Below are positions 493 to 11,986 of a DNA stretch of 11,986 nt, in pieces. Below the pieces are notes generated by a model that had not been told where the DNA came from, did not search any database, and saw only the letters and a program-made list of their open reading frames with translations. The DNA is from Vulcanimicrobiales bacterium (GTDB lineage Bacteria > Vulcanimicrobiota > Vulcanimicrobiia > Vulcanimicrobiales > Vulcanimicrobiaceae). Position numbers and translations under genes: made by a program. The stretch spans positions 1-11,986 of the forward strand of contig JBBRLI010000045.1 in the NCBI GenBank assembly GCA_038231455.1, read 5' to 3'. Position 1 is the stretch's first letter; every line of letters begins with the position of its first letter.

Positions 493-1326
493 ATGGCAAT
501 TCTCGATCACCGCGAGCTGCAGGTCGAACCCGGCCAAAACGTTGCTTTGGCCGACATCGATGCCGGTTCAACAGGTGTTTTTGACCATCACCGACGTGCG
601 AAGAAGAAGCTTCACCGCGATATCAAGCGACTCGCCGAGCTGCAAAGCATCTTTTACGCCTCCGGACAGTATGCGCTGCTCATCGTTCTGCAGGGCATGG
701 ACACGGCAGGCAAGGACAGCGCGATCAAACACGTGATGACCGGCGTCAACCCGCAAGGCGTTGACGTTACCAGCTTCAAGGCACCCTCAACGCTCGAGCT
801 GGAGCACGACTACCTCTGGCGGACGACCAAAGCACTGCCGCCGCGCGGACGCATCGGCATTTTCAATCGTTCGTACTACGAGGAACTCTTGGTCACACGC
901 GTGCACGAATCGCTGCTCGATCGCGAGAATCTTCCGCCGGGCAGCGCATCGGATCCGGACCTCTGGAAGGATCGCTTCGAGGACATCAACGGCTTCGAGC
1001 ATCACTTGTCGCGCAACGGTACCGTCATCGTGAAGCTCTTTCTGCATCTTTCACAAGACGAACAGCGCAAGCGCTTACTTGCGCGGATCGATACGCCGGA
1101 CAAGAATTGGAAATTTTCAGCGGCCGACGTTCACGAACGCACGTTCTGGAACAGCTACCAATGCGCATACGAGCAGATGCTCGAGCATACGAGCACCGCG
1201 TGGGCACCGTGGTACATCGTTCCCGCCGACCACAAGTGGTTCACGCGCGTAGCGGTCGCCGGGATCCTCGTTGCGAAGCTCGAATCGCTCGGTCTTGCTT
1301 ACCCGCAGGTTAGTGACGAGCGGTGA
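493..1326 (+). CDS. ppk2: Polyphosphate kinase 2 family, class III-like polyphosphate:nucleotide phosphotransferase
   Basis: Walker A LQGMDTAGKDSAIKHV, GVNPQG, SFKAPS..EL.HDYLWR, FNRSYYEELLVTRVH, KNWKFS and TAWAPWYIVPADHKWFTR. Start placed at ATG 493 (MAILDHRELQVEPG), because the ORF-track extension from 349 crosses the inverted repeat and is not PPK2-like. The frame continues past TGA 1324-1326 to 1410 (see findings). Confidence 0.93.
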   Translation: MAILDHRELQVEPGQNVALADIDAGSTGVFDHHRRAKKKLHRDIKRLAELQSIFYASGQYALLIVLQGMDTAGKDSAIKHVMTGVNPQGVDVTSFKAPSTLELEHDYLWRTTKALPPRGRIGIFNRSYYEELLVTRVHESLLDRENLPPGSASDPDLWKDRFEDINGFEHHLSRNGTVIVKLFLHLSQDEQRKRLLARIDTPDKNWKFSAADVHERTFWNSYQCAYEQMLEHTSTAWAPWYIVPADHKWFTRVAVAGILVAKLESLGLAYPQVSDER

Positions 1327-1406
1327 GCGCATCTGGCGGCACTCGAGAAGCAGCTTACGCTTGAAGGCGAACACGTTCACGAGGGACAGCCGCAACGCAC
1401 ATCTGC

Positions 1407-1613
1407 GTGAAGCGTATTCTCGGCGTCGATCGCGGTTTATCGCCAATCGCGTTTGCGACCTATGAAACAGAATCGATCGGCGAGCGAATCGTGATGTACG
1501 GCGGTGTTGAACCGCTCGGGGAGGCCAACGCTGGCGATCCTCAACGCGTTGCGTGCAACGACAGCGACGGATGCAACGGCGGTTCCTCGGAATTTATTGG
1601 GAAGTGCGGGTAG
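1407..1613 (+). pseudogene. Probable degenerate N-terminal remnant of acetate kinase
   Basis: MKRILGVDRGLSPIAFATYETESIGERIVMYGGVEPLG...RVACNDSDG resembles the AckA N-terminus (ILVhNxGSSSIKFALYE...GxhExIG), but the catalytic GSSSxK motif is eroded and the ORF is only 68 aa. Its GTG overlaps the TGA at 1408-1410 of the extended ppk2 frame. Confidence 0.45.
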
Positions 1614-1824
1614 ATATTTTCCGAGGATCCGGTACGGCAAGCCGAAGGCAAGAGATGCCTCGCGTAAACCGGCGATTGACGACGAGCTCGCGCGATCCGT
1701 CGAAATGGAGCTCGCCCTTGCCAAGGCGCGTATTCGCATCAACCGCAAGTAAAACGTGTCGATACTTATATCCTCGAACATGCTGCCCACCATGTTCGAG
1801 CGTGCCCCAGGCAAAGTGAAGTGA

Positions 1825-1846
1825 TGCCGGTTGGGCGCAACCGGCA
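1825..1846. terminator. GC-rich hairpin between convergent genes; possible weak terminator
   Basis: TGCCGGTTG-GGCG-CAACCGGCA, a 9-bp stem. No canonical U-tract follows it on either strand (minus strand reads TCACTTCACTTT). Confidence 0.35.
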
Positions 1847-1940
1847 AAAATGGAGTCTCATGGCCATTGACTGGCCCCTCAAAACGCACGCAGACCACTA
1901 GACCACTGCACCCGCCAGTGCGTTTCATGTAACCCGGGCG

Positions 1941-3050
1941 CTACTGTAGGTAGGCTTTACCGATCGCCATGCCTTGACGAACGTGCACGCCTTGCTGCGA
2001 GTCGAGGTGCACGTTGCTGCGTTGCTCGAACACCATAACGAAGTCCGACCCACCGAAGGCGAAGTAGCCGAGCTCCTCGCCCTTACGAAGTTCGCGCCCG
2101 ACTTCCGCCGTCATCACCACCGACGAGACTTGCGCCATGCCCATCGGCACGCAGGCAACCAGGCCGATTGGCGAATCGATGACTGCCAGGCCGCGCGTCT
2201 GCACGAACTGGTAGCCCGTTTGGTCGAGACAATTCAGCACGTTACCGGGCTTGCCGTTCGCTGTGCCGGGGATCGCCTCGACGTCGAGAAACGCCTGACC
2301 TTGAATGACGCGCGCCTCCAAGACCGTTCCGGGAACCGGCGTGTGCCAGCGATGGTAATCCGTGGTGTTGAGAAAGCTATGCGTGAAGATGCCGTCCTTG
2401 AAGCGATCCGCGTACGGACTACCCTCGAGGAGCTGATGAATCGACCAGTGTAGACCTTTGCTCTTCACCAAGATATCGGATGAATCACTGATCTGCCACC
2501 AGCCGACGAACGTGGAATCGGCCGGCGCGACGAGCACCGTCGGATCGTTGAGAGACGCGACAGGACGCAAACCGGGCTTGACGTCGCGCGCCATGAATTG
2601 GTTGAAGGTTTGGTAGCCGCTCGGCGGTGCCATGTATTCGTCCCAATTAAAGTTCGGCGCGGTCTTGAACGATTCGATCTCCTTTGCGGACTCGGTCGTA
2701 TCGAGATAACTGCCCCACGACTTTGCGAATTCGTCGATCCAAGCCGAGAGCTGGGTCAGCGTCTGGACGCCCTTGCCGGGCTCGATCGGGTTTTGCAAGC
2801 TTCGGACCGGTTCTTGATCGAGGATGAAGTAGAACTCGGCCATCTTCTGATAGATCCGGTGCGAATCACCGGGCGATGACGGTGTCCATTTTGCGAAGCC
2901 GTCGACGTACTTCAGGTAGTCTTCGAGCGTCTTGATGCCGGCGAGCGACTCGATGTGGAGCTTTTCCGTCGTCGCGATTGCCTCGTCGAACTTGGCCTTC
3001 CAGCCGTTCTTGTCGATCAGTGCGGAGAGTTTTTCCGTTACGGGATGCAT
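1941..3050 (-). CDS. Phosphatidylserine decarboxylase family (pyruvoyl-dependent, self-cleaving) protein; substrate uncertain
   Basis: YQTFNQFMARDVKPGLRPVA, APADS (catalytic Asp), FLNTTDYHRWHTPV (His) and KGEELGYFAFGGSD (GG/S autocleavage; Ser codon at 2046-2048 gives a 35-aa alpha chain). AAGGA SD upstream of ATG 3050. No obvious TM segment. Confidence 0.9.
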   Translation of the reverse strand: MHPVTEKLSALIDKNGWKAKFDEAIATTEKLHIESLAGIKTLEDYLKYVDGFAKWTPSSPGDSHRIYQKMAEFYFILDQEPVRSLQNPIEPGKGVQTLTQLSAWIDEFAKSWGSYLDTTESAKEIESFKTAPNFNWDEYMAPPSGYQTFNQFMARDVKPGLRPVASLNDPTVLVAPADSTFVGWWQISDSSDILVKSKGLHWSIHQLLEGSPYADRFKDGIFTHSFLNTTDYHRWHTPVPGTVLEARVIQGQAFLDVEAIPGTANGKPGNVLNCLDQTGYQFVQTRGLAVIDSPIGLVACVPMGMAQVSSVVMTAEVGRELRKGEELGYFAFGGSDFVMVFEQRSNVHLDSQQGVHVRQGMAIGKAYLQ

Positions 3051-3449
3051 ACAGGACTACTTTCCTTGACGATGATGAGTTAGCGGCGGAAGCCGAGCGG
3101 GTCGGTTGGCAAGTCGAGGGTTGGAATATCGTTCAGACGCGGTCGCTCGAGCCGACTGCTAATTAAAAATGATTCGTGTTTTTGGTAGGCGGCTCCGAAT
3201 GCTGATAGGCCAACGGGTACGCACCAAGGCGCTCGAGCAAGCCCTTGCAGTCGAACGACCGGAATTGCCACGGCGAGCTTTGCCGTCCCAGCAAAACAGA
3301 TGTTAGACCTCGACCGCGTGTCACGCAATCGTGGTTTTCTCGGATAGCTTTCGGTAAATAGAGATGCCAGTATTGGGTGCGCCCTTGGCCCGAGCAATGT
3401 ACTGCAATTACGGGAATACGTTCGGCCATATTCAAGACAGGCGGACCAT

Positions 3450-5027
3450 ATGTCGAGCAATGCAGCACCGAAGCGGCAGCCGGGCGCGGTTAAGAAAAAG
3501 GTCGTCGTGATCAGCATGATCACGCTCGCGATCATGAATGTCACCACCGTCATGAGTCTGCGCGGCCTGCCGTCCCAAGCCGTATACGGCTTAAATTCAA
3601 TCTTCTATTTCGGGCTCGCTGCGGTCGTATTCTTGATTCCAGTCGCGCTCGTCGCAGCGGAACTGGCGTCGACATTCCCGGAAAAGGGCGGCGTCTTCCG
3701 TTGGATCGGCGAGGCATTCGGTCCGGCTTGGGGCTTTGCTGCATTGTATTACGAGTGGCAGTCGATCGTCGTCTGGTTTCCGACCGTCTTGATCTTTGCC
3801 GGCGTCGCTTTCGCCTATATCTTCGGCTCGGCGAGCTTCGATGCGGCACTCGCAGCCAACAAGTTCTACGTCATCGCTGTCGTGCTTTTGGTGTTCTGGT
3901 CGGTCACGCTCTTCACGTTTCGCGGAATCCAATCGTCCTCGAAGTTGAGTACGCTCGGCGGCTTGATTGGTACGATCATTCCGGGCGCGATTCTTATTCT
4001 CGCCGCCGGCGTCTACGTCGTGCTCGGCAATCCAGTCCATCTCGACATGACAACCGGGTACATTCCGAAGTTTAACAACATAAGCACGGTCGTACTGGCC
4101 GGAAGTATCTTTCTCTTTTTCGCGGGCATGGAGATGCAAGCGGTTCACATCACGGATATGAAAAACCCAAGCCGCGACTATCCGCTTTCCCTTTTGATCG
4201 CTACGGTGGTGATCGTTGCGGTGTTCGTGCTCGGGACGTTGGCGATTGCGATAATCGTACCGCAAAAAGATATCAATCTCACACAGAGCCTACTCGTGGC
4301 GTTCCGCACCTTGTGGACGGCATTGCACGTGCCGTGGATGGGGAACGTGATGGCGGCGATGCTGGCGTTCGGCGTGCTGGGGCAGGTGAGCGTGATCATT
4401 GCGGGCCCGTCCACCGGCCTGCTCGCGGTCGGTAAAGGCGGGTATCTCCCGAAATTCTTCCAGCGCACGAACAAGAACGGAATTCAGGTTCCAATCCTGG
4501 TCTTCCAGGGGATCGTCGTCAGCGTTCTCGCGTTAGCACTGACGGTGCTACCGTCTGTGCAGTCTGCCTATCAAATCCTCAGCCAAATGGCGACGGTGAT
4601 CATCCTGGTCATGTACCTGATCATGTACGCCGCCGCTCTCCGTCTCCGACATACGCAGCCGAACAAACACCGGCCCTTCAAAATTCCCGGCAACGCCGTG
4701 GGCATATGGCTCGTTGGCGGAATCGGCTTCATCGCCGCGCTCGGCGCATGCGTTTTGAGCTTTATCCCGCCGACGCAAATCGCGACCGGCAGTCCGGTGC
4801 TTTACATTGGCATCCTGGTGGTCGGTAGCGCCATCTTCCTTGCGATCCCGTTTGTGATCTATGCGTTCCGCAAGCCCGAATGGAAAGCTGCCAATGCGGA
4901 CTTTGCTGCGTTCGATTGGCAAATCGAAGGCCGCACGCCGAGCGAAGTTTCGAAGTGGCCGGTCGGCCACGTTGCAAAGCCGGTGCCCGTTCCGAACAAG
5001 GCACCATCGCCACCGGCTGCGGCCTAA
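3450..5027 (+). CDS. APC-superfamily amino acid/amine antiporter, GadC-like
   Basis: About 12 hydrophobic segments. TLAIMNVTTVMSLRGLPSQA, FLIPVALVAAELA, GGVFRWIGEAFG, FLFFAGMEMQAVH and RPFKIPG are characteristic of the GadC-type antiporter group. Hydrophilic C-terminal tail. Confidence 0.9.
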   Translation: MSSNAAPKRQPGAVKKKVVVISMITLAIMNVTTVMSLRGLPSQAVYGLNSIFYFGLAAVVFLIPVALVAAELASTFPEKGGVFRWIGEAFGPAWGFAALYYEWQSIVVWFPTVLIFAGVAFAYIFGSASFDAALAANKFYVIAVVLLVFWSVTLFTFRGIQSSSKLSTLGGLIGTIIPGAILILAAGVYVVLGNPVHLDMTTGYIPKFNNISTVVLAGSIFLFFAGMEMQAVHITDMKNPSRDYPLSLLIATVVIVAVFVLGTLAIAIIVPQKDINLTQSLLVAFRTLWTALHVPWMGNVMAAMLAFGVLGQVSVIIAGPSTGLLAVGKGGYLPKFFQRTNKNGIQVPILVFQGIVVSVLALALTVLPSVQSAYQILSQMATVIILVMYLIMYAAALRLRHTQPNKHRPFKIPGNAVGIWLVGGIGFIAALGACVLSFIPPTQIATGSPVLYIGILVVGSAIFLAIPFVIYAFRKPEWKAANADFAAFDWQIEGRTPSEVSKWPVGHVAKPVPVPNKAPSPPAAA

Positions 5028-5091
5028 AAATGCATCCCTCGGACTGATTCTCGACACCCGATTCTCTCGGCTCACAAAGGACAACCTCACC

Positions 5092-7023
5092 ATGTCGACC
5101 AGTATCCGCCCAAACGGTACCGCTCTCGTTCTGAACGATCATGCGAACGGCGCCGCGGCCGCAACGCCTCTCGCAGTCGAAGCGCTCTTCCTTGGGCCGA
5201 AGTCCGAAAATCAGCAGTTTTTCCGGTCGAGTCTGCGTGCGATCATCGAAGATCACATCCACTGGCGCAGCGACTTCAACCCCGCCGACAAAGCGATTGT
5301 ATCGGTCTCGGAAATGCGCGACGCACCATTCGTGCACACACTCGATCGGACGACTGAAGTGCTTGATCAGGTGTCTACGCGCTTACGCGAGTCGCAAGGT
5401 CCATGGTTTTCCGTCCGCTACCTCGGGCACATGCTGTCTGACATTCTCATGGTCGCAAATCTCGCCAAGATGGCGACGATTCTCTATAACCCGAACAACT
5501 GCGCATACGAAGCCTCGGAAGCTACCGAACCGATGGAGTTGGAGGTCGGTAAGGACTTCGGCCGTTTGCTCGGTTACGATGCGCAAACGAGTTGGGGACA
5601 CATCACGACCGACGGAACCGTCGCAAACTACGAGTCGCTGTGGCTGGCAAGAAACCTAAAGTCGTTCCCGCTTGCTGTTCAGCAGATCTCCCCGGACCTG
5701 GTCCAAGGGCTAGACGAGTGGCAGCTACTCAATCTCTCAGTCGAGAGCATCCTCGATCTTCTCGATAGCACAAAGAAGCAGGGAACCTTTGCCAAGGTGC
5801 TTGAGGCGTCGGCCCGCGGTCGTGGTGCCGGCGGCGGGAAGTTGGGCAAAGTTCTCGTTCCGCAATCGCGCCATTACTCGTGGGAGAAGGCGGCGGACAT
5901 CCTTGGCATCGGTTTGGATGCGCTCGTAAACGTGCCGGTGGACAACCTTTACCGGATCGATCTGCACGCACTGCGCGCTTCACTCGAAGACTGTCTCGCA
6001 AAGCACGTTCCGGTCATGGCGTTGATCTCCGTCGTCGGAACGACGGAAGAAGGCGCCATCGACGACATAGCCGCGATCGTCGCAATGCGCGAAGAATTTG
6101 CCAAAAAGGGCCTTTTGTTCTATTACCACATTGATGCGGCATACGGCGGCTACGGTCGAACGCTGTTTCTCGACGAGCAGGGCGACTTCATGGAGTACGC
6201 TACGCTGCAGCAGCGGATCGATGAGCTCGATGTAGCCGGCCCGGAGCACAACTTCCCCTCGAAGAGCGTGTGGAGTTCTTATCGGGCGATGCCGGCGGCC
6301 GACTCGGTCACGATTGACCCGCACAAGATGGGCTACGTGCCTTACGCAGCCGGCGGGATCAGCGTTCGCAATAAACGCATCCTCGGTTTGGTCTCGTATT
6401 CGGCTGCATACGTCTTCGACGGCAAGGACATCGAACTCAATCTTGCCAGCGTTATCATGGAAGGCTCGAAGTCCGGCGCATCGGCTGCGGGTGTTTGGGC
6501 CGCGCATCAACTGCTTCCGCAGAACATCGCCGGTTACGGTCAACTGATGGCGCGTAGTCTCGGCGGTGCTCGCCACTTCGTTCGGACGCTCGCGAAGCTC
6601 GAAGAGTTCTCCGTTTCCGGTAAGACGATCGTATGCCGTCCGCTACTGAGCGAACCGGACTTCAACATCGTCTGCATGGCCTTCAACTATAAAGGCAACA
6701 CGAGCCTAGCGACGATGAACGACCTAAATATGAAGATCTATCATGCCTCGTCCTATTCGGGCGGCCGGATGTATTCCGAGGATTGGATCACGTCGCATAC
6801 CGTGCTTGAAGCAAAATCATACGGGACGGCTCCGGTCGATTTCATCAAAAAGTTCGGCATCACCGAGGCCGAATGGAAAGACGTCGGTCAGGTCGTTGTC
6901 CTGCGTGCCTGCGTGTTGCACCCGTGGATGGCGAGTGCGTCGACATATCCGGAACAGTGGCAGTCGTATCTCGAAATAATGCAAGGCAAGATCGCGCAGA
7001 TTATCGCCAACGACAAGCCGTGA
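5092..7023 (+). CDS. tdc: Group II PLP-dependent decarboxylase, tyrosine decarboxylase (TyrDC/TdcA)-like, 643 aa
   Basis: Collinear with Enterococcus/Lactobacillus TyrDC as I recall it: ALFLGPKSEN, RYLGHM, WGHITTDGTVANYESLWLARNLKSFP, VPQSRHYSWEKAADILGIG, VVGTTEEGAID, HIDAAYGGYGRTLFLDE, SVTIDPHKMGYVPYAAGG (PLP Lys at 6325-6327), EGSKSGA and FGITEAEW..VGQVVVLRA. Start is ATG 5092 with an AAAGGA SD. Substrate not certain. Confidence 0.9.
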   Translation: MSTSIRPNGTALVLNDHANGAAAATPLAVEALFLGPKSENQQFFRSSLRAIIEDHIHWRSDFNPADKAIVSVSEMRDAPFVHTLDRTTEVLDQVSTRLRESQGPWFSVRYLGHMLSDILMVANLAKMATILYNPNNCAYEASEATEPMELEVGKDFGRLLGYDAQTSWGHITTDGTVANYESLWLARNLKSFPLAVQQISPDLVQGLDEWQLLNLSVESILDLLDSTKKQGTFAKVLEASARGRGAGGGKLGKVLVPQSRHYSWEKAADILGIGLDALVNVPVDNLYRIDLHALRASLEDCLAKHVPVMALISVVGTTEEGAIDDIAAIVAMREEFAKKGLLFYYHIDAAYGGYGRTLFLDEQGDFMEYATLQQRIDELDVAGPEHNFPSKSVWSSYRAMPAADSVTIDPHKMGYVPYAAGGISVRNKRILGLVSYSAAYVFDGKDIELNLASVIMEGSKSGASAAGVWAAHQLLPQNIAGYGQLMARSLGGARHFVRTLAKLEEFSVSGKTIVCRPLLSEPDFNIVCMAFNYKGNTSLATMNDLNMKIYHASSYSGGRMYSEDWITSHTVLEAKSYGTAPVDFIKKFGITEAEWKDVGQVVVLRACVLHPWMASASTYPEQWQSYLEIMQGKIAQIIANDKP

Positions 7024-8000
7024 GGCGAGTGCCTCGGCGGATCGCGACCGTCGCGTTCGCGCTCGCAATTGCTGGCTGGGCGCGAACTGCTTCGGCCGAC
7101 GGTCAGATCGATGCCGACGTAAAGCAGTGGTTCACCGGTCCGTTGATCGCCCCGTCGCCTGCGTTGCCGGTCGCCCGTTTGCTGGCGGTAGAGCCGTATG
7201 TCATCTACAGCGACACAACGGGCGCGTTCGGTGCCAACGGCGGCCGAACGTCCCGCCCTCACGCGGCGAATCACTCACTCTTCGTGTTCGCGATTAAGTA
7301 CGCAATCACGAAGCGCCTAACGGTTGCAATTACTCCATCGCTGGCGTATCAGACGAACGGTGCGTTGCCAGTCGGTGCCATCGGCGTGGGCGACCTTCCG
7401 GTGGAACTCGAGTACCGGTTCAAGAACGGGAACGGCAAAACCGGCTCACCATCGGTTACGTTCGATCTCGGCGTAACTACGCCCATCGGCGCCTACCAGC
7501 AACTCGCAAATCCGCTCGACGGTATCGGCAGCGGCGCAAGCACGCTCAAGGAAGGTGTCGTCGTTCAGTCGCTCTTCAATACCGCTAGCAATCATGCGAT
7601 GCGCGTTCGGCTCTGGGCCGCGGTCTCCGAACCGCTCCGCGACGTGACGGTCCGAGACTTGAGCGTGTACGGCACGCTGGCGGGCTTCAGAGGTTCGGTA
7701 ACCCCCGGAATTTCGAGAGCGCTCGGCCTCGGCATGGAATACGGGCTCGATCGCCGTTGGGTGATTGCTCTCGACCTCAGCCAGAACTACGCCAACGCGT
7801 TCCGCCTGCGCGGAATCGACGCGAAGGGAAGCGTCGTGCGCAGTACGAGCACCTACGGTGATTCCTTCGTCCTGGCACCGGCGATCGAATACAATATGTC
7901 GGGACGCCTCGGCATCATCGGCGGGGTCGCGTTCTCGGCCGCCGGCCGCAACGCTTCGTCGTTCGTTGCGCCGCAAGTCGCGTTGAGCATGGCATTCTAG
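7020..8000 (+). CDS. Secreted, predicted outer-membrane beta-barrel protein (porin/transporter-like), 326 aa
   Basis: GTG 7020 overlaps the decarboxylase TGA (GTGA). Sec signal peptide RRVPRRIATVAFALAIAGWARTASA/D. WFTGPLIAPSP...VEPY N-terminal motif, amphipathic beta-strands (GDLPVELEYRF, LAPAIEYNMSGRLGIIGGVAFS) and terminal Phe (VALSMAF). Confidence 0.75.
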   Translation: MRRVPRRIATVAFALAIAGWARTASADGQIDADVKQWFTGPLIAPSPALPVARLLAVEPYVIYSDTTGAFGANGGRTSRPHAANHSLFVFAIKYAITKRLTVAITPSLAYQTNGALPVGAIGVGDLPVELEYRFKNGNGKTGSPSVTFDLGVTTPIGAYQQLANPLDGIGSGASTLKEGVVVQSLFNTASNHAMRVRLWAAVSEPLRDVTVRDLSVYGTLAGFRGSVTPGISRALGLGMEYGLDRRWVIALDLSQNYANAFRLRGIDAKGSVVRSTSTYGDSFVLAPAIEYNMSGRLGIIGGVAFSAAGRNASSFVAPQVALSMAF

Positions 8001-9305
8001 ATGGCGGAGGCCGCGAAGCAGAAGCCCAGCATGAACGTGTGGGGAGTCGCTGCGCTCGGCGTTGGAGCGATGGTCGGCGCGGGCATTTTCGCTCTGCTTG
8101 GAGAGGTCGCGCTAGTCGCTCACGGGGCAGCGTGGATCGCATTCATCGCCGGCGGCATCATCGCTATGTTCTCGGGGTATTCCTACGCTCGCCTCGCAGC
8201 CACGTACCCGTCGGATAGCGGCATCGTCGCGTTCTTCAACGCCGGATTGCCTGCCCGCGCAGCCGCCGGCTCGTTTTCTCTGATTTATTTGTTGACGTTG
8301 GCCGTGTCGAGCGCCCTTATCGCGAAGAGCTTCGGAGCCTACGCGGCACGGCTGGCGTTCGGCGACGGCGCAGCACCGATCTGGATCGACCTTTTCGCTA
8401 CCGCCATCGTCATCGGGCTCACTGTCCTCAACGCGGTCGGCTCGCGCGCCGTCGCGCGTGCCGAGATCGTCCTCGTCGCGGTCAAACTCTTGACGCTGGG
8501 CGCGCTACTGGTGGCCGGTTCGACGACGTTCTCCGCGGCGCGCCTTGGCAGCGCACACGAGGTTGGTCTCTCCTCGATCATCGCTGCAGTGGGACTCACG
8601 TTTTTCGCGTATTCCGGGTATGGCATTATGGCGAACGCTTCGGGTGACGTTGCCAAACCGAATGTCGTCATTCCACGCGCGATCTACGGCGCTATCGGCT
8701 TCGTCATTCTCCTCTACGTAGCGGTTTCGGTCATCGTTCTTGGAAACGTCAGCCAAGCCGATCTTGTGAAATATGCCGATACGGCCGTCGCTCAGGCGGC
8801 GAAGCCCGTGCTAGGCAGTGCGGGATTCATCGCAGTCTCGATCGCGGCGCTGCTCGCGACGGCCTCGGCGATCAACGCGATACTCTTCAGCAGTATGAAC
8901 ATCGCCCAAGGTCTCGGAAAAGCCCGCCAGCTCCCGGGCGCCTTCACCACCGTCGTCAGAGGCAAGCTCAGCCGTGGCGTCCTCGTCGCGGTGGTTGGGG
9001 TCCTCGCGATCATCAACTTTCTCGACCTCTCGGCAATTGCCGACGTCGCAAGCGCGGCTTTTCTCATCACGTACTTGGCGGTGTTCGTCGCACATTGGCG
9101 GCTTGTGAAAGAAACGAAGAGCAGTCGTGTTGTCATCGGGGTCGGTGCGTGTTTGATGGCCGTCGTGCTCGCCGTCTTCGAGACATCGGTTTATCGCAAG
9201 AGCGTGACGTTGCTATGGCTCACGGTCGGGCTTGTCGTTGCCGCAGTCGCGATCGAGCTCGTGCTCGCACGGACGGCACGGTCGAAGCCGGCCCTCGCAG
9301 CGTGA
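8001..9305 (+). CDS. APC-family amino acid permease (second, distinct subfamily)
   Basis: TM1 GVGAMVGAGIFALLG, SYARLAATYP..SG, TM6 FFAYSGYGIMANASGDVAKP...IPRAI, about 12 TM segments. ATG directly abuts the upstream TAG. Confidence 0.92.
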   Translation: MAEAAKQKPSMNVWGVAALGVGAMVGAGIFALLGEVALVAHGAAWIAFIAGGIIAMFSGYSYARLAATYPSDSGIVAFFNAGLPARAAAGSFSLIYLLTLAVSSALIAKSFGAYAARLAFGDGAAPIWIDLFATAIVIGLTVLNAVGSRAVARAEIVLVAVKLLTLGALLVAGSTTFSAARLGSAHEVGLSSIIAAVGLTFFAYSGYGIMANASGDVAKPNVVIPRAIYGAIGFVILLYVAVSVIVLGNVSQADLVKYADTAVAQAAKPVLGSAGFIAVSIAALLATASAINAILFSSMNIAQGLGKARQLPGAFTTVVRGKLSRGVLVAVVGVLAIINFLDLSAIADVASAAFLITYLAVFVAHWRLVKETKSSRVVIGVGACLMAVVLAVFETSVYRKSVTLLWLTVGLVVAAVAIELVLARTARSKPALAA

Positions 9306-9535
9306 TGAAAAAACGAACCATCGGCGATCCCCGAGACATCGATGCGCCGCAACCCCGTTCAATCCGTTATGAGCGGCTGCGCTATGTGGGACGACTCATG
9401 CCGCCCCACATGTCCGGTACATCGCCTGCGAAATCACGGCCCGGTCATCATCCGCCGATTTTAGCGACTTCAGCACATTCGGCCGCAACGTCGACCGGAA
9501 GCTGCGGATCGTGCGCCTTACGAATAAGCGCGTAT

Positions 9536-10327
9536 CTAAAACTGGCCGCCCCGAGCGCGACAATCATTTGCTCGGTCCCGGGCGGTGCGGCCGATCGCGG
9601 CAAACGACTGCGGGTCGAGGCTAGCGCCACCGACGAGCGCCCCATCGACGTCGGCCAAAGCCAAGAGGCTCGCCGCGTTCTGGGGGTCCACCGAGCCGCC
9701 GTAGAGGATACGTATTCGGTGCGCGATTTCCGCGCCCAGCACGGAGGCCACGTTGGCGCGAATCCGTGTGTGCGCGTCTTCGGTGACCGACGGGGGGGCC
9801 GGCGAACCATCGCCGATCGCCCAGAGCGGCTCGTATGCGAAAATGGCGGTTTCCGCACCTGTGCGGTCGACGCCCCGTAATGCGGCGGAGACTTGCCGCT
9901 CGAGCACAGCGGCCGTTGCCCCCGCCGCTCGTTCGCCTTTCGTTTCACCCACGCAGACCACCGGAATCAACCCGTGGGCCAGCGCCGAGCGAAGTTTCCA
10001 ATTGACGGACTCGTCGGTCTCGTTGAAGTAACGGCGACGCTCGCTATGCCCGATAAGAACGTGAGTGCAGCCAAGGGCGAGGAGCATCGTGGGTGAGGTC
10101 TCACCGGTGTACGCACCCTCATCGAGCCAATGCATGTTCTGTGCACCGACTTCGAGTTGCGTGCCGCGGACGGCTGCCGTGACCGCCGGCAGCGAGGTCA
10201 TTGCCGGAAAGAGCAGCGTTTCCACGCCGTCGCCCGCGTCGACCGCTCGAAAGTCCTCGATGAAGGCGACGGCGTCGGCCGGCGTTTTGTGCATTTTCCA
10301 GTTCGCGGCGATGAGCAGCGGGCGCAT
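9536..10327 (-). CDS. tpiA: Triosephosphate isomerase
   Basis: AANWKMHK, GAQNMHW, GAYTGETSP, IGHSERR, AYEPLWAIG, LYGGSV and DGALVGGASL. Start is ATG 10327, or alternatively GTG 10336 or TTG 10342, the last overlapping the xfp stop. Confidence 0.96.
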   Translation of the reverse strand: MRPLLIAANWKMHKTPADAVAFIEDFRAVDAGDGVETLLFPAMTSLPAVTAAVRGTQLEVGAQNMHWLDEGAYTGETSPTMLLALGCTHVLIGHSERRRYFNETDESVNWKLRSALAHGLIPVVCVGETKGERAAGATAAVLERQVSAALRGVDRTGAETAIFAYEPLWAIGDGSPAPPSVTEDAHTRIRANVASVLGAEIAHRIRILYGGSVDPQNAASLLALADVDGALVGGASLDPQSFAAIGRTARDRANDCRARGGQF

Positions 10328-10338
10328 CGAGGTCACGG

Positions 10339-11986
10339 TCAACCGGGGTCGCTCCATTTCCAGTTTCGAATCTCCGGCAAATCCTGGCCGTGCTCAGCGA
10401 TGTACCGCTTATGCTCGATCAGTTTATCGTGCATGCGCTGCCGTAGGTAATCGGACCCGGCACCGAGCTCTGGAAGACGATCGAGTACATCGCACACCAG
10501 ATGGAAGCGGTCGAGGTCGTTCTCCACGCGCATATCGAAGGGCGTCGTGATCGTCCCCTCTTCTTTGTAGCCGCGAACGTGCAGGCGTTGGTTCGTTCGT
10601 CGGTACGTCAAACGATGAATGACCGATGGATAGCCGTGGAACCCAAAAACGATATGCTTGTCCTTTGTGAAAAGGGCGTCATAGTCGGCCTCGCTCAACC
10701 CGTGGGGGTGCTCGCTTGCCGACTGCAGCTTCATGAGGTCGACGACGTTGATCACGCGAATCTTGATGCCGGGCAAGTTGGTACGGAGAATCCACGTTGC
10801 CGCGATGATCTCAAGCGTCGGTGTGTCACCGCAACACGCCATGACGACATCGGGTTCGCCGCCTTGGTCGTTGCTGGCCCAGGTCCAAATGCCGATGCCC
10901 TCGGTGCAATGGATGTCCGCGGCCTCCATGTTCAGCCACTGCGGCAATGCGTGCTTTCCGGCGACGACGACGTTCACGTAGTTGCGGCTGCGCAGGCAAT
11001 GATCGAACACCGACAAGAGACAATTCGCATCGGGCGGCAAGTAGACGCGCACGATGCTGGCCTTTTTATTGATCACATGATCGATGAACCCGGGATCCTG
11101 ATGCGTGAACCCGTTGTGATCCTGTTGCCAAACGTGCGAGGCCAGCAGATAGTTGAGCGATGAAATGTCCTGGCGCCACGGCAACTGCGCGCACACCTTG
11201 AGCCACTTCGCATGCTGGCTGAACATCGAATCCACGATCCGAATGAACGCCTCGTAACTGTTGAACAGTCCATGCCGGCCGGTTAGCAGGTAGCCTTCCA
11301 GCCAGCCCTCACACTGATGCTCGCTCAACATCGAATCGAGCACGCCGCCGGCGGGTGCGAGGAACTGATCGTTCGACTCGCGGCCCGCGTCCCATTGACG
11401 AGCGGTGACCTCGAAGACGGCCCCCAAGAGATTCGAGAGCGTCTCGTCCGGGCCGAAGATGCGGAAGTTGCGCGGCTCCGAGTTCGCTTGCATGACGTCG
11501 CGCAGAAAGAGACCCAGGACGTCGCAATCGCGCGCGTCGACGGCACCCGGCGCCGGCACGGCTACCGCGTGCGCGCGGAAATCCGGCATGCGCAGATCTC
11601 GCAGAAGTTTGCCGCCGTTGGCGTGCGGGTTGGCGCCCATGCGGCGGTCACCCGTGGGTGCGAGTTCGGCAAGTTCGTCGATGAGCCGACCGCTCTCATC
11701 GAATAACTCCTCCGGCTTGTAGCTCTTCATCCACGCTTCGAGTAACGGGACGTGCTCGGGGTGATCCGCGTCGACCAGCATCGGGACCTGGTGCGCGCGA
11801 AACGTCCCCTCGATTTGAAGACCGTCGACGACCTTGGGTCCGGTCCAGCCTTTCGGCGTGCGAAGCACGATCATCGGCCAGCGTGGCCGCGTCGTGTCGC
11901 CGGTCGTCCGCGCGTGCTGCTGAATGCGCGTGATGTCGTCGATCGCGCGGTCCATCGTTGCGGCCATCGCCTCGTGCATTGCGCCC
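10339..11986 (-). CDS. xfp: Xylulose-5-phosphate/fructose-6-phosphate phosphoketolase, C-terminal part; 5' end lies outside the window
   Basis: [100 protein letters not shown] and [10 protein letters not shown]. Confidence 0.97.

Follow-up and report, generated by a model that had tools for sequence, protein, structure and literature searches.

Decarboxylase/antiporter pairs are a classical means of resisting acid and of generating proton-motive force (PMF) from amino acids. The contig C45 of the Vulcanimicrobiales genome G000 (11,986 nt, analysed in its whole length and referred to as the window) carries such a pair together with the genes of an outer-membrane beta-barrel, a second amino-acid permease and a second decarboxylase of the pyruvoyl type. 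The question raised by this locus is whether the five genes belong to one system and what that system would do. The linkage of the five genes exceeds chance, because the same functional set was found, in another order, in the three closest metagenome loci. The cassette is probably a module of decarboxylation and exchange that spans both membranes, serves acid resistance or PMF generation and handles two substrates; both its substrates and its physiology we infer from the sequence.

Layout and recurrence of the five-gene cassette

The five-gene layout, described earlier in a sequence-only reading of this DNA, was borne out by the map of open reading frames (ORFs) and by direct reading of the sequence. 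The features are the following, with PSD standing for phosphatidylserine decarboxylase, TyrDC for tyrosine decarboxylase and PLP for pyridoxal phosphate.

1941..3050, minus strand: PSD-superfamily pyruvoyl decarboxylase, PsiD-like, 369 aa (PF02666)
3051..3449: divergent intergenic region of 399 nt, the presumed control region of both transcription units
3450..5027, plus strand: GadC-family amino-acid/amine antiporter, 525 aa, 12 hydrophobic segments (PF13520, TIGR03813)
5092..7023, plus strand: TyrDC-family PLP-dependent decarboxylase, 643 aa (PF21391, PF00282, TIGR03811)
7020..8000, plus strand: COG4313-type outer-membrane beta-barrel channel, precursor of 326 aa (fold match)
8001..9305, plus strand: ApcT-like APC-superfamily amino-acid permease, 434 aa, 12 hydrophobic segments (PF13520)
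1316..10390: approximate strain-specific (accessory) stretch that carries the cassette (contig breaks in other runs)

The joints between the genes were as had been described. The TAA of the antiporter gene (5025-5027) is separated by 64 nt from the decarboxylase ATG at 5092, and AAGGA lies about 10 nt upstream of this ATG. The GTG of the barrel gene (7020-7022) overlaps the decarboxylase TGA (7021-7023) within GTGA, and the TAG of the barrel gene (7998-8000) abuts the permease ATG at 8001. The PSD-family gene is transcribed divergently on the minus strand (1941-3050) and shares the 399-nt spacer (3051-3449) with the other four. The family calls were also confirmed: PF02666 for the PSD-like protein, PF13520 with TIGR03813 for the antiporter, PF21391 with PF00282 and TIGR03811 for the decarboxylase, and PF13520 for the second permease. 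The chosen starts of the decarboxylase (643 aa) and barrel (326 aa) genes correspond to database entries of the same length and sequence. The Rfam search of the spacer and the window resulted in no family, and the scan for sigma-70-like promoters and terminators gave counts not above those of shuffled sequence.

The gene orders of the three closest long metagenome loci, in which the decarboxylase is 77-79% identical, are listed below; in each of them all the genes lie on one strand.

L087: second decarboxylase DC2, ApcT-like permease (69%), GadC-like antiporter (70%), TyrDC-like decarboxylase, OprD-like porin
L088: PSD-like protein (86%), GadC-like antiporter (80%), ApcT-like permease (77%), TyrDC-like decarboxylase, OprD-like porin
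L089: DC2, GadC-like antiporter (73%), TyrDC-like decarboxylase, COG4313-like barrel (50%), ApcT-like permease (51%)

The slot of the second decarboxylase was filled in the window and in all three sister loci, either by the PSD-like pyruvoyl enzyme or by a PF00282 PLP enzyme, the chemistries of which are unrelated. The PSD-like homologue of L088 (86% identity) is co-directional with the antiporter gene and located 19 nt upstream of it. DC2 is a PF00282 enzyme of 573-602 aa; its copies in L087 and L089 are 83% identical, the best solved relatives, all weak, are human GAD65/67, GADL1 and CSAD, and no homologue was detected in the host genome G000. The channel was exchanged in a similar manner. 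The COG4313-like barrel of L089 (50%) occupies the same position as that of the window, and the OprD-like protein of the other two loci (508-521 aa, with a signal peptide and the end ...FQLEYDF) follows the decarboxylase also in the fragment L091. The nearest atlas clusters of the OprD-like protein carry PF03573 in 22-37% of their members and are commonest in Vulcanimicrobiota. A barrel gene thus follows the decarboxylase gene in the window, L087, L088, L089 and L091, with two unrelated families, the COG4313-type and the OprD-like, in this role. The shuffled order and the replacement by unrelated proteins of the same class are better evidence for functional coupling than a fixed synteny. Genes of SpoIIE-type (PP2C-like) phosphatases were also observed near the cassette in L087 (11951-12931) and L088 (765-1229), with no equivalent in the window.

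The wider distribution was determined in the loci around decarboxylase homologues, 80 from genomes and 80 from metagenomes, which were searched with all the window proteins. In 48 of the 80 genome loci the decarboxylase gene was immediately preceded, on the same strand, by the gene of a GadC/TyrP-family antiporter, and in one more locus such a gene lay downstream only. In the metagenome loci the antiporter adjoined the decarboxylase in 30 of 80; some of the 160 loci that lacked an antiporter match are short contigs. The hosts include many archaea (Micrarchaeota, Methanoregula, Methanobrevibacter) and varied bacteria, and the antiporter-decarboxylase core pair is ancient and widespread. The other three components were distributed differently. 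Within 10 kb, at E<=1e-5 and with a query coverage of at least 50%, none of the 80 genome loci contained a homologue of the PSD-like protein, the barrel or the second permease. When the downstream ORFs of 98 loci were judged by eye, barrel-like ends were seen only in L087, L088 and L089; this test is crude, and many of the 98 hosts are archaea or monoderms. The co-conservation expected from the sequence-only reading therefore holds in the closest clade, where L087, L088 and L089 carry the full functional set, but not outside it. The channel, the second permease and the second decarboxylase are add-ons of one small clade, in which unrelated proteins of equal functional class can stand in for each of them.

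A different arrangement, with the TyrDC homologue between two antiporter genes, one on each side, was observed in Methanoregula-like, Methanomicrobiales and some Dehalococcoidia loci (L018, L024, L027, L040, L048, L098, L102-L105, L113, L114).

Predicted properties of the encoded proteins

The TyrDC-like protein matched PF21391 at 8.8e-41 and PF00282 at 1.6e-17. Its score with TIGR03811 was 672.6 bits, which is under the equivalog cut-off of 905.3, and the glutamate decarboxylase model TIGR01788 gave just 22 bits. The protein was aligned from end to end with the TyrDC structures of L. brevis and E. faecalis (5HSI and 7CWX, about 1e-168). The residues of L. brevis TyrDC (LbTDC) listed in the accessible part of PMC4904194 were compared with the use of the structure alignment, and K392 (the Schiff-base lysine), D328, H241, T298, Y398, Y420, S440 and D389 were all conserved. 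Three pocket positions are changed relative to LbTDC, S586 to C, M505 to I and M588 to L; the pocket, as read from the aligned positions, remains small and hydrophobic with no new charge. The family membership points to aromatic amino acids as substrates.

The antiporter scored 651.5 bits with TIGR03813.2 (cut-off 650), 284.5 bits with the TyrP model and 35.7 bits with the AdiC model (cut-off 574). The corresponding TIGR03813.2 scores of the sister-locus antiporters, 629.2, 630.8 and 652.0 bits, also lie around the threshold, which gives a range of 629-652 bits for the antiporters of the window clade as compared with 268-302 bits on the TyrP model. The match with the structure of E. coli GadC (4DJI) was 1.1e-67.

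The barrel protein was not assigned to any Pfam family, PF13557 included, even at E<=10. Its N-terminus resembles a signal peptide with the predicted cleavage between ...ASA and DG, and its C-terminal residue is Phe (...SMAF). The number of homologues was 237, and PF13557 was present in 35 of the 120 listed. The AlphaFold2 model based on 39 sequences is a beta-barrel with a predicted local distance difference test (pLDDT) score of 78.4 and a predicted template-modelling (pTM) score of 0.74. The top fold match of this model was the COG4313 channel Pput2725 (4RL8; E 2.3e-12, TM 0.74 by target), followed by FapF. COG4313 channels are described in the accessible text of PMC4493636 as 12-stranded and implicated in the uptake of hydrophobic molecules, e.g. 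trichlorophenol and sphingosine.

The closest solved relative of the second permease is ApcT of M. jannaschii (3GI9, 4.8e-54). Transporters of the ApcT type are proton-coupled rather than antiporters. The position of ApcT K158 is occupied by Lys in the permease (...VAVKLLTL...), which we take to be a mark of proton coupling.

The PSD-like protein matched PF02666 at 2.1e-43 over residues 149-364 as its sole Pfam family (E<=0.001). Its scores were under the cut-offs of all four matching NCBIfam PSD models (115.7/371, 101.3/307, 78.2/111.75 and 61.6/285 bits). The best sequence matches in the PDB were PsiD (9e-19, residues 140-333) and then E. coli PSD (2e-15, residues 136-253 only), and the alignment with PsiD stops exactly at the end of the PsiD beta chain, ...FGG. 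With a profile of the 35-sequence family, the scores of PsiD, the arginine decarboxylase of A. oryzae and E. coli PSD were 72.1, 65.5 and 62.8 bits, respectively. The same order was obtained in the fold search with the predicted model, where PsiD was first (5.8e-11, 378 columns) and PSD followed at 7.5e-8 (261 columns). The translation contains the motifs FAFGGSD and DYHRWH, and self-cleavage is predicted between FGG and S; both motifs are invariant across the 35 homologues, and the histidine of YHRWH is conserved. The self-cleavage motif is GGSS in PsiD and LGST in PSD according to the accessible text of PMC11929908; LGST is not present in the PSD-like protein, which reads FAFGGSD. No N-terminal hydrophobic segment was found in the protein.

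The gene is the only PF02666 match in the host genome. No match with the pssA model TIGR00473 was detected at E<=0.001 in this genome (93.67% complete), the PLD-type PssA of E. coli not being searched. Among 60 relatives, from the genus to the class level, no homologue was found with the window query. In the host phylum, 10 of 401 genomes had a PSD-like match at E<=1e-30, a count that includes G361, a genome flagged as unpublished; all but G000 were 36-51% identical. In the phylum sample of G402, the acidobacterial host of L071, the match was found in 1 of 401 genomes. The 120 listed homologues share 59-92% identity and carry the database name 'phosphatidylserine decarboxylase'; the total at E<=0.001 was 1259, which may include ordinary PSDs.

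The enzyme is unlikely to act on a lipid and is read as a putative soluble amino-acid decarboxylase. This reading is based on the matches with PsiD and the A. oryzae arginine decarboxylase, the GGS motif and the missing hydrophobic segment, on the lack of pssA in the host and of a homologue in the relatives, and on the adjacency in L088 and the replacement by a PLP enzyme in the same slot of L087 and L089.

More distant PSD-like homologues (40-42%) were observed inside open frames of 1464 and 1809 aa at L174 (G355:C29) and L176 (G146:C103), both from one genus in the host's family. These long frames may be fused forms.

Proposed mechanism and the alternatives weighed

In the proposed mechanism, a hydrophobic or aromatic L-amino acid would cross the outer membrane via the COG4313-type channel, and the GadC-family antiporter would exchange it for its amine across the inner membrane. 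The TyrDC-family enzyme would decarboxylate the amino acid in the cytoplasm with the consumption of one proton per turnover, which would raise the cytoplasmic pH and build a membrane potential. The PSD-superfamily pyruvoyl decarboxylase, independent of a cofactor, would take a soluble amino acid rather than a lipid, and together with the ApcT-like permease it would add a second substrate or uptake route. In enterococci and lactobacilli, TyrDC-TyrP confers resistance to acid and generates PMF (accessible part of PMC12607914). The earlier proposal of an envelope-spanning decarboxylation/antiport system gained from the recurrence in the closest clade, but its parts had to be redrawn: the second permease is ApcT-like, the antiporter lies at the threshold of the GadC model and not with TyrP, and the pyruvoyl enzyme is somewhat nearer to PsiD than to the lipid PSD.

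Several observations weigh against the proposed mechanism. The full set was found in only 4-5 loci. The flank of L088 is syntenic with the host contig C21 at 72-75% nucleotide identity, so at least one host, that of L088, is related to G000 and the loci are not phylogenetically independent. There is no regulator or pH sensor in the window. A proton symporter of the ApcT type would consume PMF, not generate it, and the characterised COG4313 channels are tied to hydrophobic molecules and not to amino acids (accessible part of PMC4493636). The two halves of the core pair do not agree in the substrate, as the antiporter score is much higher with the Gln/Glu-GABA model than with the TyrP model (651.5 and 284.5 bits) and the decarboxylase is of the TyrDC type. 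In LbTDC, only the substitutions of S586 by A, G or T retained more than 10% of the activity (accessible part of PMC4904194); the Cys in this position is outside the tolerated set, and tyrosine may therefore not be the substrate. The antiporters adjoining more distant TyrDC homologues share just 32-40% identity with that of the window, and for 11 antiporters beside such homologues the GadC-type and TyrP models gave similar scores, in the range of 350-477 bits. The pairing in the window clade is therefore a re-assortment, and, with the window clade leaning to GadC, the substrate is not readable from the family names. In the case of the pyruvoyl enzyme, the confidence of the predicted model was middling (pLDDT 69.7) and PsiD outscored E. 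coli PSD only modestly (72 vs 63 bits). No cassette gene was located beside the more distant PSD-like homologues in six host-phylum regions (L182-L187), nor in the seventh context (L201), where the neighbours are cadherin-like, MoxR and ABC proteins; a general link of the PSD-like family to transporters is thus unsupported.

The same parts could be used for amine production or amino-acid scavenging instead of acid resistance or PMF, which we consider rather unlikely. Scarce aromatic or hydrophobic amino acids would then enter by the channel and the ApcT-like permease, and the amines would be signals, nitrogen or carbon intermediates or building blocks. The permease belongs to a type of proton-coupled uptake and keeps the K158 position, PsiD and Ao-ADC1 of the PSD superfamily are biosynthetic, and the runs with the cassette are labelled as sediment and soil metagenomes and come with no pH information, all of which would suit scavenging. 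The same holds for the reported role of COG4313 members in the uptake of hydrophobic molecules (accessible part of PMC4493636) and for the statement in the accessible text of a 2025 review that a role in acid resistance is not common to all bacterial aromatic amino-acid decarboxylases (PMC12607914). This alternative is opposed by the position of the GadC-family antiporter gene immediately upstream of the decarboxylase gene, the hallmark of an exchange of precursor for product, which belongs to the conserved core. In addition, no amine-using enzyme (oxidase, transferase or nonribosomal peptide synthetase) was found in the window or in L087-L089. It is improbable that the PSD-family gene codes for an ordinary lipid PSD which merely lies beside a TyrDC/antiporter island, leaving one decarboxylation system. 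Such an enzyme would agree with PF02666 as the sole domain and with the sole PF02666 gene of the genome, with the divergent transcription, the names of the homologues and the small score advantage of PsiD. However, the scores under the four NCBIfam models, GGS in the place of LGST and the missing TIGR00473 match argue for a different function, and the lineage seems to manage without PSD, as no homologue was found in the 60 relatives with this query. The 86% homologue within the L088 row, 19 nt from the antiporter, and the PLP amino-acid decarboxylase holding this slot in L087 and L089 also connect the gene with the cassette.

A chimeric contig or a wrong bin would make both the diderm host and the linkage unsafe; this we regard as very improbable. 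The assembly consists of 106 contigs, and the tetranucleotide distance of the window is at the 99.6th percentile of the 273 genome chunks of 12 kb. The triosephosphate isomerase (TIM), PPK2 and phosphoketolase encoded in the window are just 46-62% identical to those of a same-genus genome (phosphoketolase 62%, PPK2 53%), and a 94% variant of the window end is present on contig C91. These features would agree with an artefact, but independent assemblies of four other runs reproduced the arrangement, one contig of 9,066 nt spanning 1316-10381 with 24 differences. Contig C86 shares an exact overlap of 141 nt with the head of the window and also overlaps the start of contig C17 (68.9 kb), part of which is 87% identical to the same-genus genome; mis-binning is therefore unlikely. 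The presence of the barrel gene also favours a diderm host, and the L088 cassette adjoins DNA syntenic with contig C21 of G000. The module of decarboxylation and exchange across both membranes thus remains the preferred reading.

The host is diderm, as Omp85/BamA is encoded in the genome. The cassette is an accessory, rare and mobile element of this host. No close TyrDC homologue was found in the 60 relatives with the window query, and in the phylum sample of 401 genomes the only close decarboxylase was that of G000, the ten others being 32-52% identical. The GC content of the window was 59.8% and that of the genome 61.3 +/- 1.2%. The cassette was detected in part in 20 DNA runs and at least by half in 12. 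Contig breaks were seen at about 1316 and about 10381-10399 in the runs X2, X3 and X4, and in X7 just at about 1316. The contigs of the flanks are deeper, the depth being a hint only. The pattern points to an insert of about 9 kb that is specific to the strain, with flanks of wider occurrence on both sides. No tRNA, integrase or flanking direct or inverted repeats marking the insertion ends were found in the window.

The stretch also holds a second, foreign-looking TIM gene (9536-10357, minus strand), the product of which is about 45% identical to the TIM of the genus; the genus-type TIM is encoded on contig C7 and is 93.6% identical to that of the same-genus genome. The window TIM gene overlaps the phosphoketolase gene at the 3' end of the latter and appears to move together with the stretch that holds the cassette. 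Contig C91 (1,221 nt) carries the 94% identical copy of the phosphoketolase end (11603-11986), which suggests that the assembled population is heterogeneous at the strain level. In all four runs single contigs follow the window from 4781 onward, and in X2, X3 and X7 from 7234 onward, with a different sequence before these points; in three runs position 11954 is connected to 7352 within one contig, 19 other letters lying in between. These switches and the joint may come from co-occurring strains that carry variant cassettes in which the genes are ordered differently.

The remaining part of the window contains few features. The stretch of 614 nt between the PPK2 and PSD-like genes (1327-1940) is without a convincing gene or Rfam match, and it may be the edge of the island, given the independent contigs breaking at about 1316. 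Here orf163 (1437-1928, minus strand) gave no Pfam or NCBIfam match even at E<=10, is rich in Arg, Ala and Ser and is probably not a gene; the 157-aa ORF at 3080-3553 was treated likewise and is probably not a gene. In the long PPK2 ORF (349-1326) the family match begins only at residue 53-82, therefore the true start may be downstream. The 5' part of this ORF contains an inverted repeat, 373-413/440-480, with 41-nt arms that are 85% complementary and 26 nt apart, which may be a regulatory or terminator element.

Relation to known systems and meaning

The most similar characterised locus with respect to the decarboxylase is tyrS-tdc-tyrP-nhaC of Enterococcus and Lactobacillus, which shares with the window a TyrDC-family enzyme with the PLP and catalytic residues kept and an adjoining APC antiporter; its mechanism of proton consumption and PMF is the model adopted here. 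In contrast to that locus, the window antiporter is located upstream and fits GadC-type models rather than TyrP, the decarboxylase is below the equivalog cut-off, and tyrS and nhaC are lacking; the cassette of the diderm host also includes a second decarboxylase, an ApcT-like permease and a channel of the outer membrane. The three-layer logic of an outer-membrane barrel, a decarboxylase and an exchanger in one cluster, with a pyruvoyl enzyme present, is found in the Chlamydia aaxABC, composed of the porin AaxA, the pyruvoyl arginine decarboxylase AaxB and the arginine/agmatine antiporter AaxC (accessible part of PMC2720952). The window differs from it in the pyruvoyl enzyme, which is of the PSD superfamily (only PF02666), in the antiporter, with 35.7 bits on the AdiC-type model, in the COG4313-type barrel and in the number of decarboxylases and transporters, two of each. 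Judged by the families, the cassette would work like aaxABC and is not a member of it, no component being shown to be homologous.

The antiporter is comparable with that of E. coli GadB/GadC, as it matches GadC (4DJI) and lies at the TIGR03813 threshold, but the window has no GadB-type glutamate decarboxylase; a distant GAD65/67-like enzyme is present in L087 and L089. The best matches of the pyruvoyl enzyme, PsiD (tryptophan) and Ao-ADC1 of A. oryzae (arginine), have in common with it the GGS-type cleavage motif, the histidine of YHRWH and an N-terminal extension that is helical, about 140 residues long and devoid of a membrane segment. The window enzyme is about 21% identical over the fold alignment, bacterial, and linked with transporters instead of a biosynthetic pathway. 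The accessible text on Providencia (bioRxiv 10.1101/735845) describes a tyrDC-tyrP operon and a redundant GAD67-like AdcA next to a permease, i.e. a Gram-negative with two aromatic decarboxylases, which was likened to the window by this description only; there the enzymes are at separate loci, both are PLP-dependent, and that text describes no outer-membrane gene. The barrel protein has the fold of Pput2725, and its 326 aa less a signal of about 26 residues fit the 270-320 mature residues of the COG4313 channels (Pput2725, TcpY, SphA); the known members belong to phenol or sphingosine loci and not to amino-acid decarboxylation (accessible part of PMC4493636).

The combination had been taken as undescribed, and the searches of the open-access literature likewise yielded no matching description. 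In open-access text no decarboxylase/antiporter cassette with an encoded outer-membrane channel was found except aaxABC, nor was any description of a bacterial PsiD-like enzyme. The words 'outer membrane', 'porin', 'pyruvoyl' and 'Gram-negative' do not occur in the accessible part of the 2025 review of bacterial aromatic decarboxylases (PMC12607914).

The channel is encoded in the cassette and replaced by an unrelated one in the sister loci, which argues for selection of the passage through the outer membrane as a component of the system. For an encoded outer-membrane step, aaxABC is the sole comparable case. To our knowledge, decarboxylase/antiporter pairs have been described mostly in monoderms and enterics, with the outer-membrane step usually ignored.

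The locus also provides a testable hypothesis for a large bacterial family annotated as lipid PSD, namely the decarboxylation of free amino acids without PLP. Tentatively, the bacterial 'phosphatidylserine decarboxylase' proteins of about 375 aa with an invariant F-x-F-G-G-S-D-F may be soluble PLP-independent amino-acid decarboxylases of the PsiD/Ao-ADC1 kind, one of which would act here alongside the TyrDC-type enzyme and form the second branch of a two-substrate, proton-consuming system with interchangeable modules across both membranes. If true, this would be the first PSD-superfamily pyruvoyl enzyme with a role in bacterial amino-acid/amine exchange; a new enzyme class would be added to bacterial biogenic-amine formation, and a widespread annotation would be corrected.

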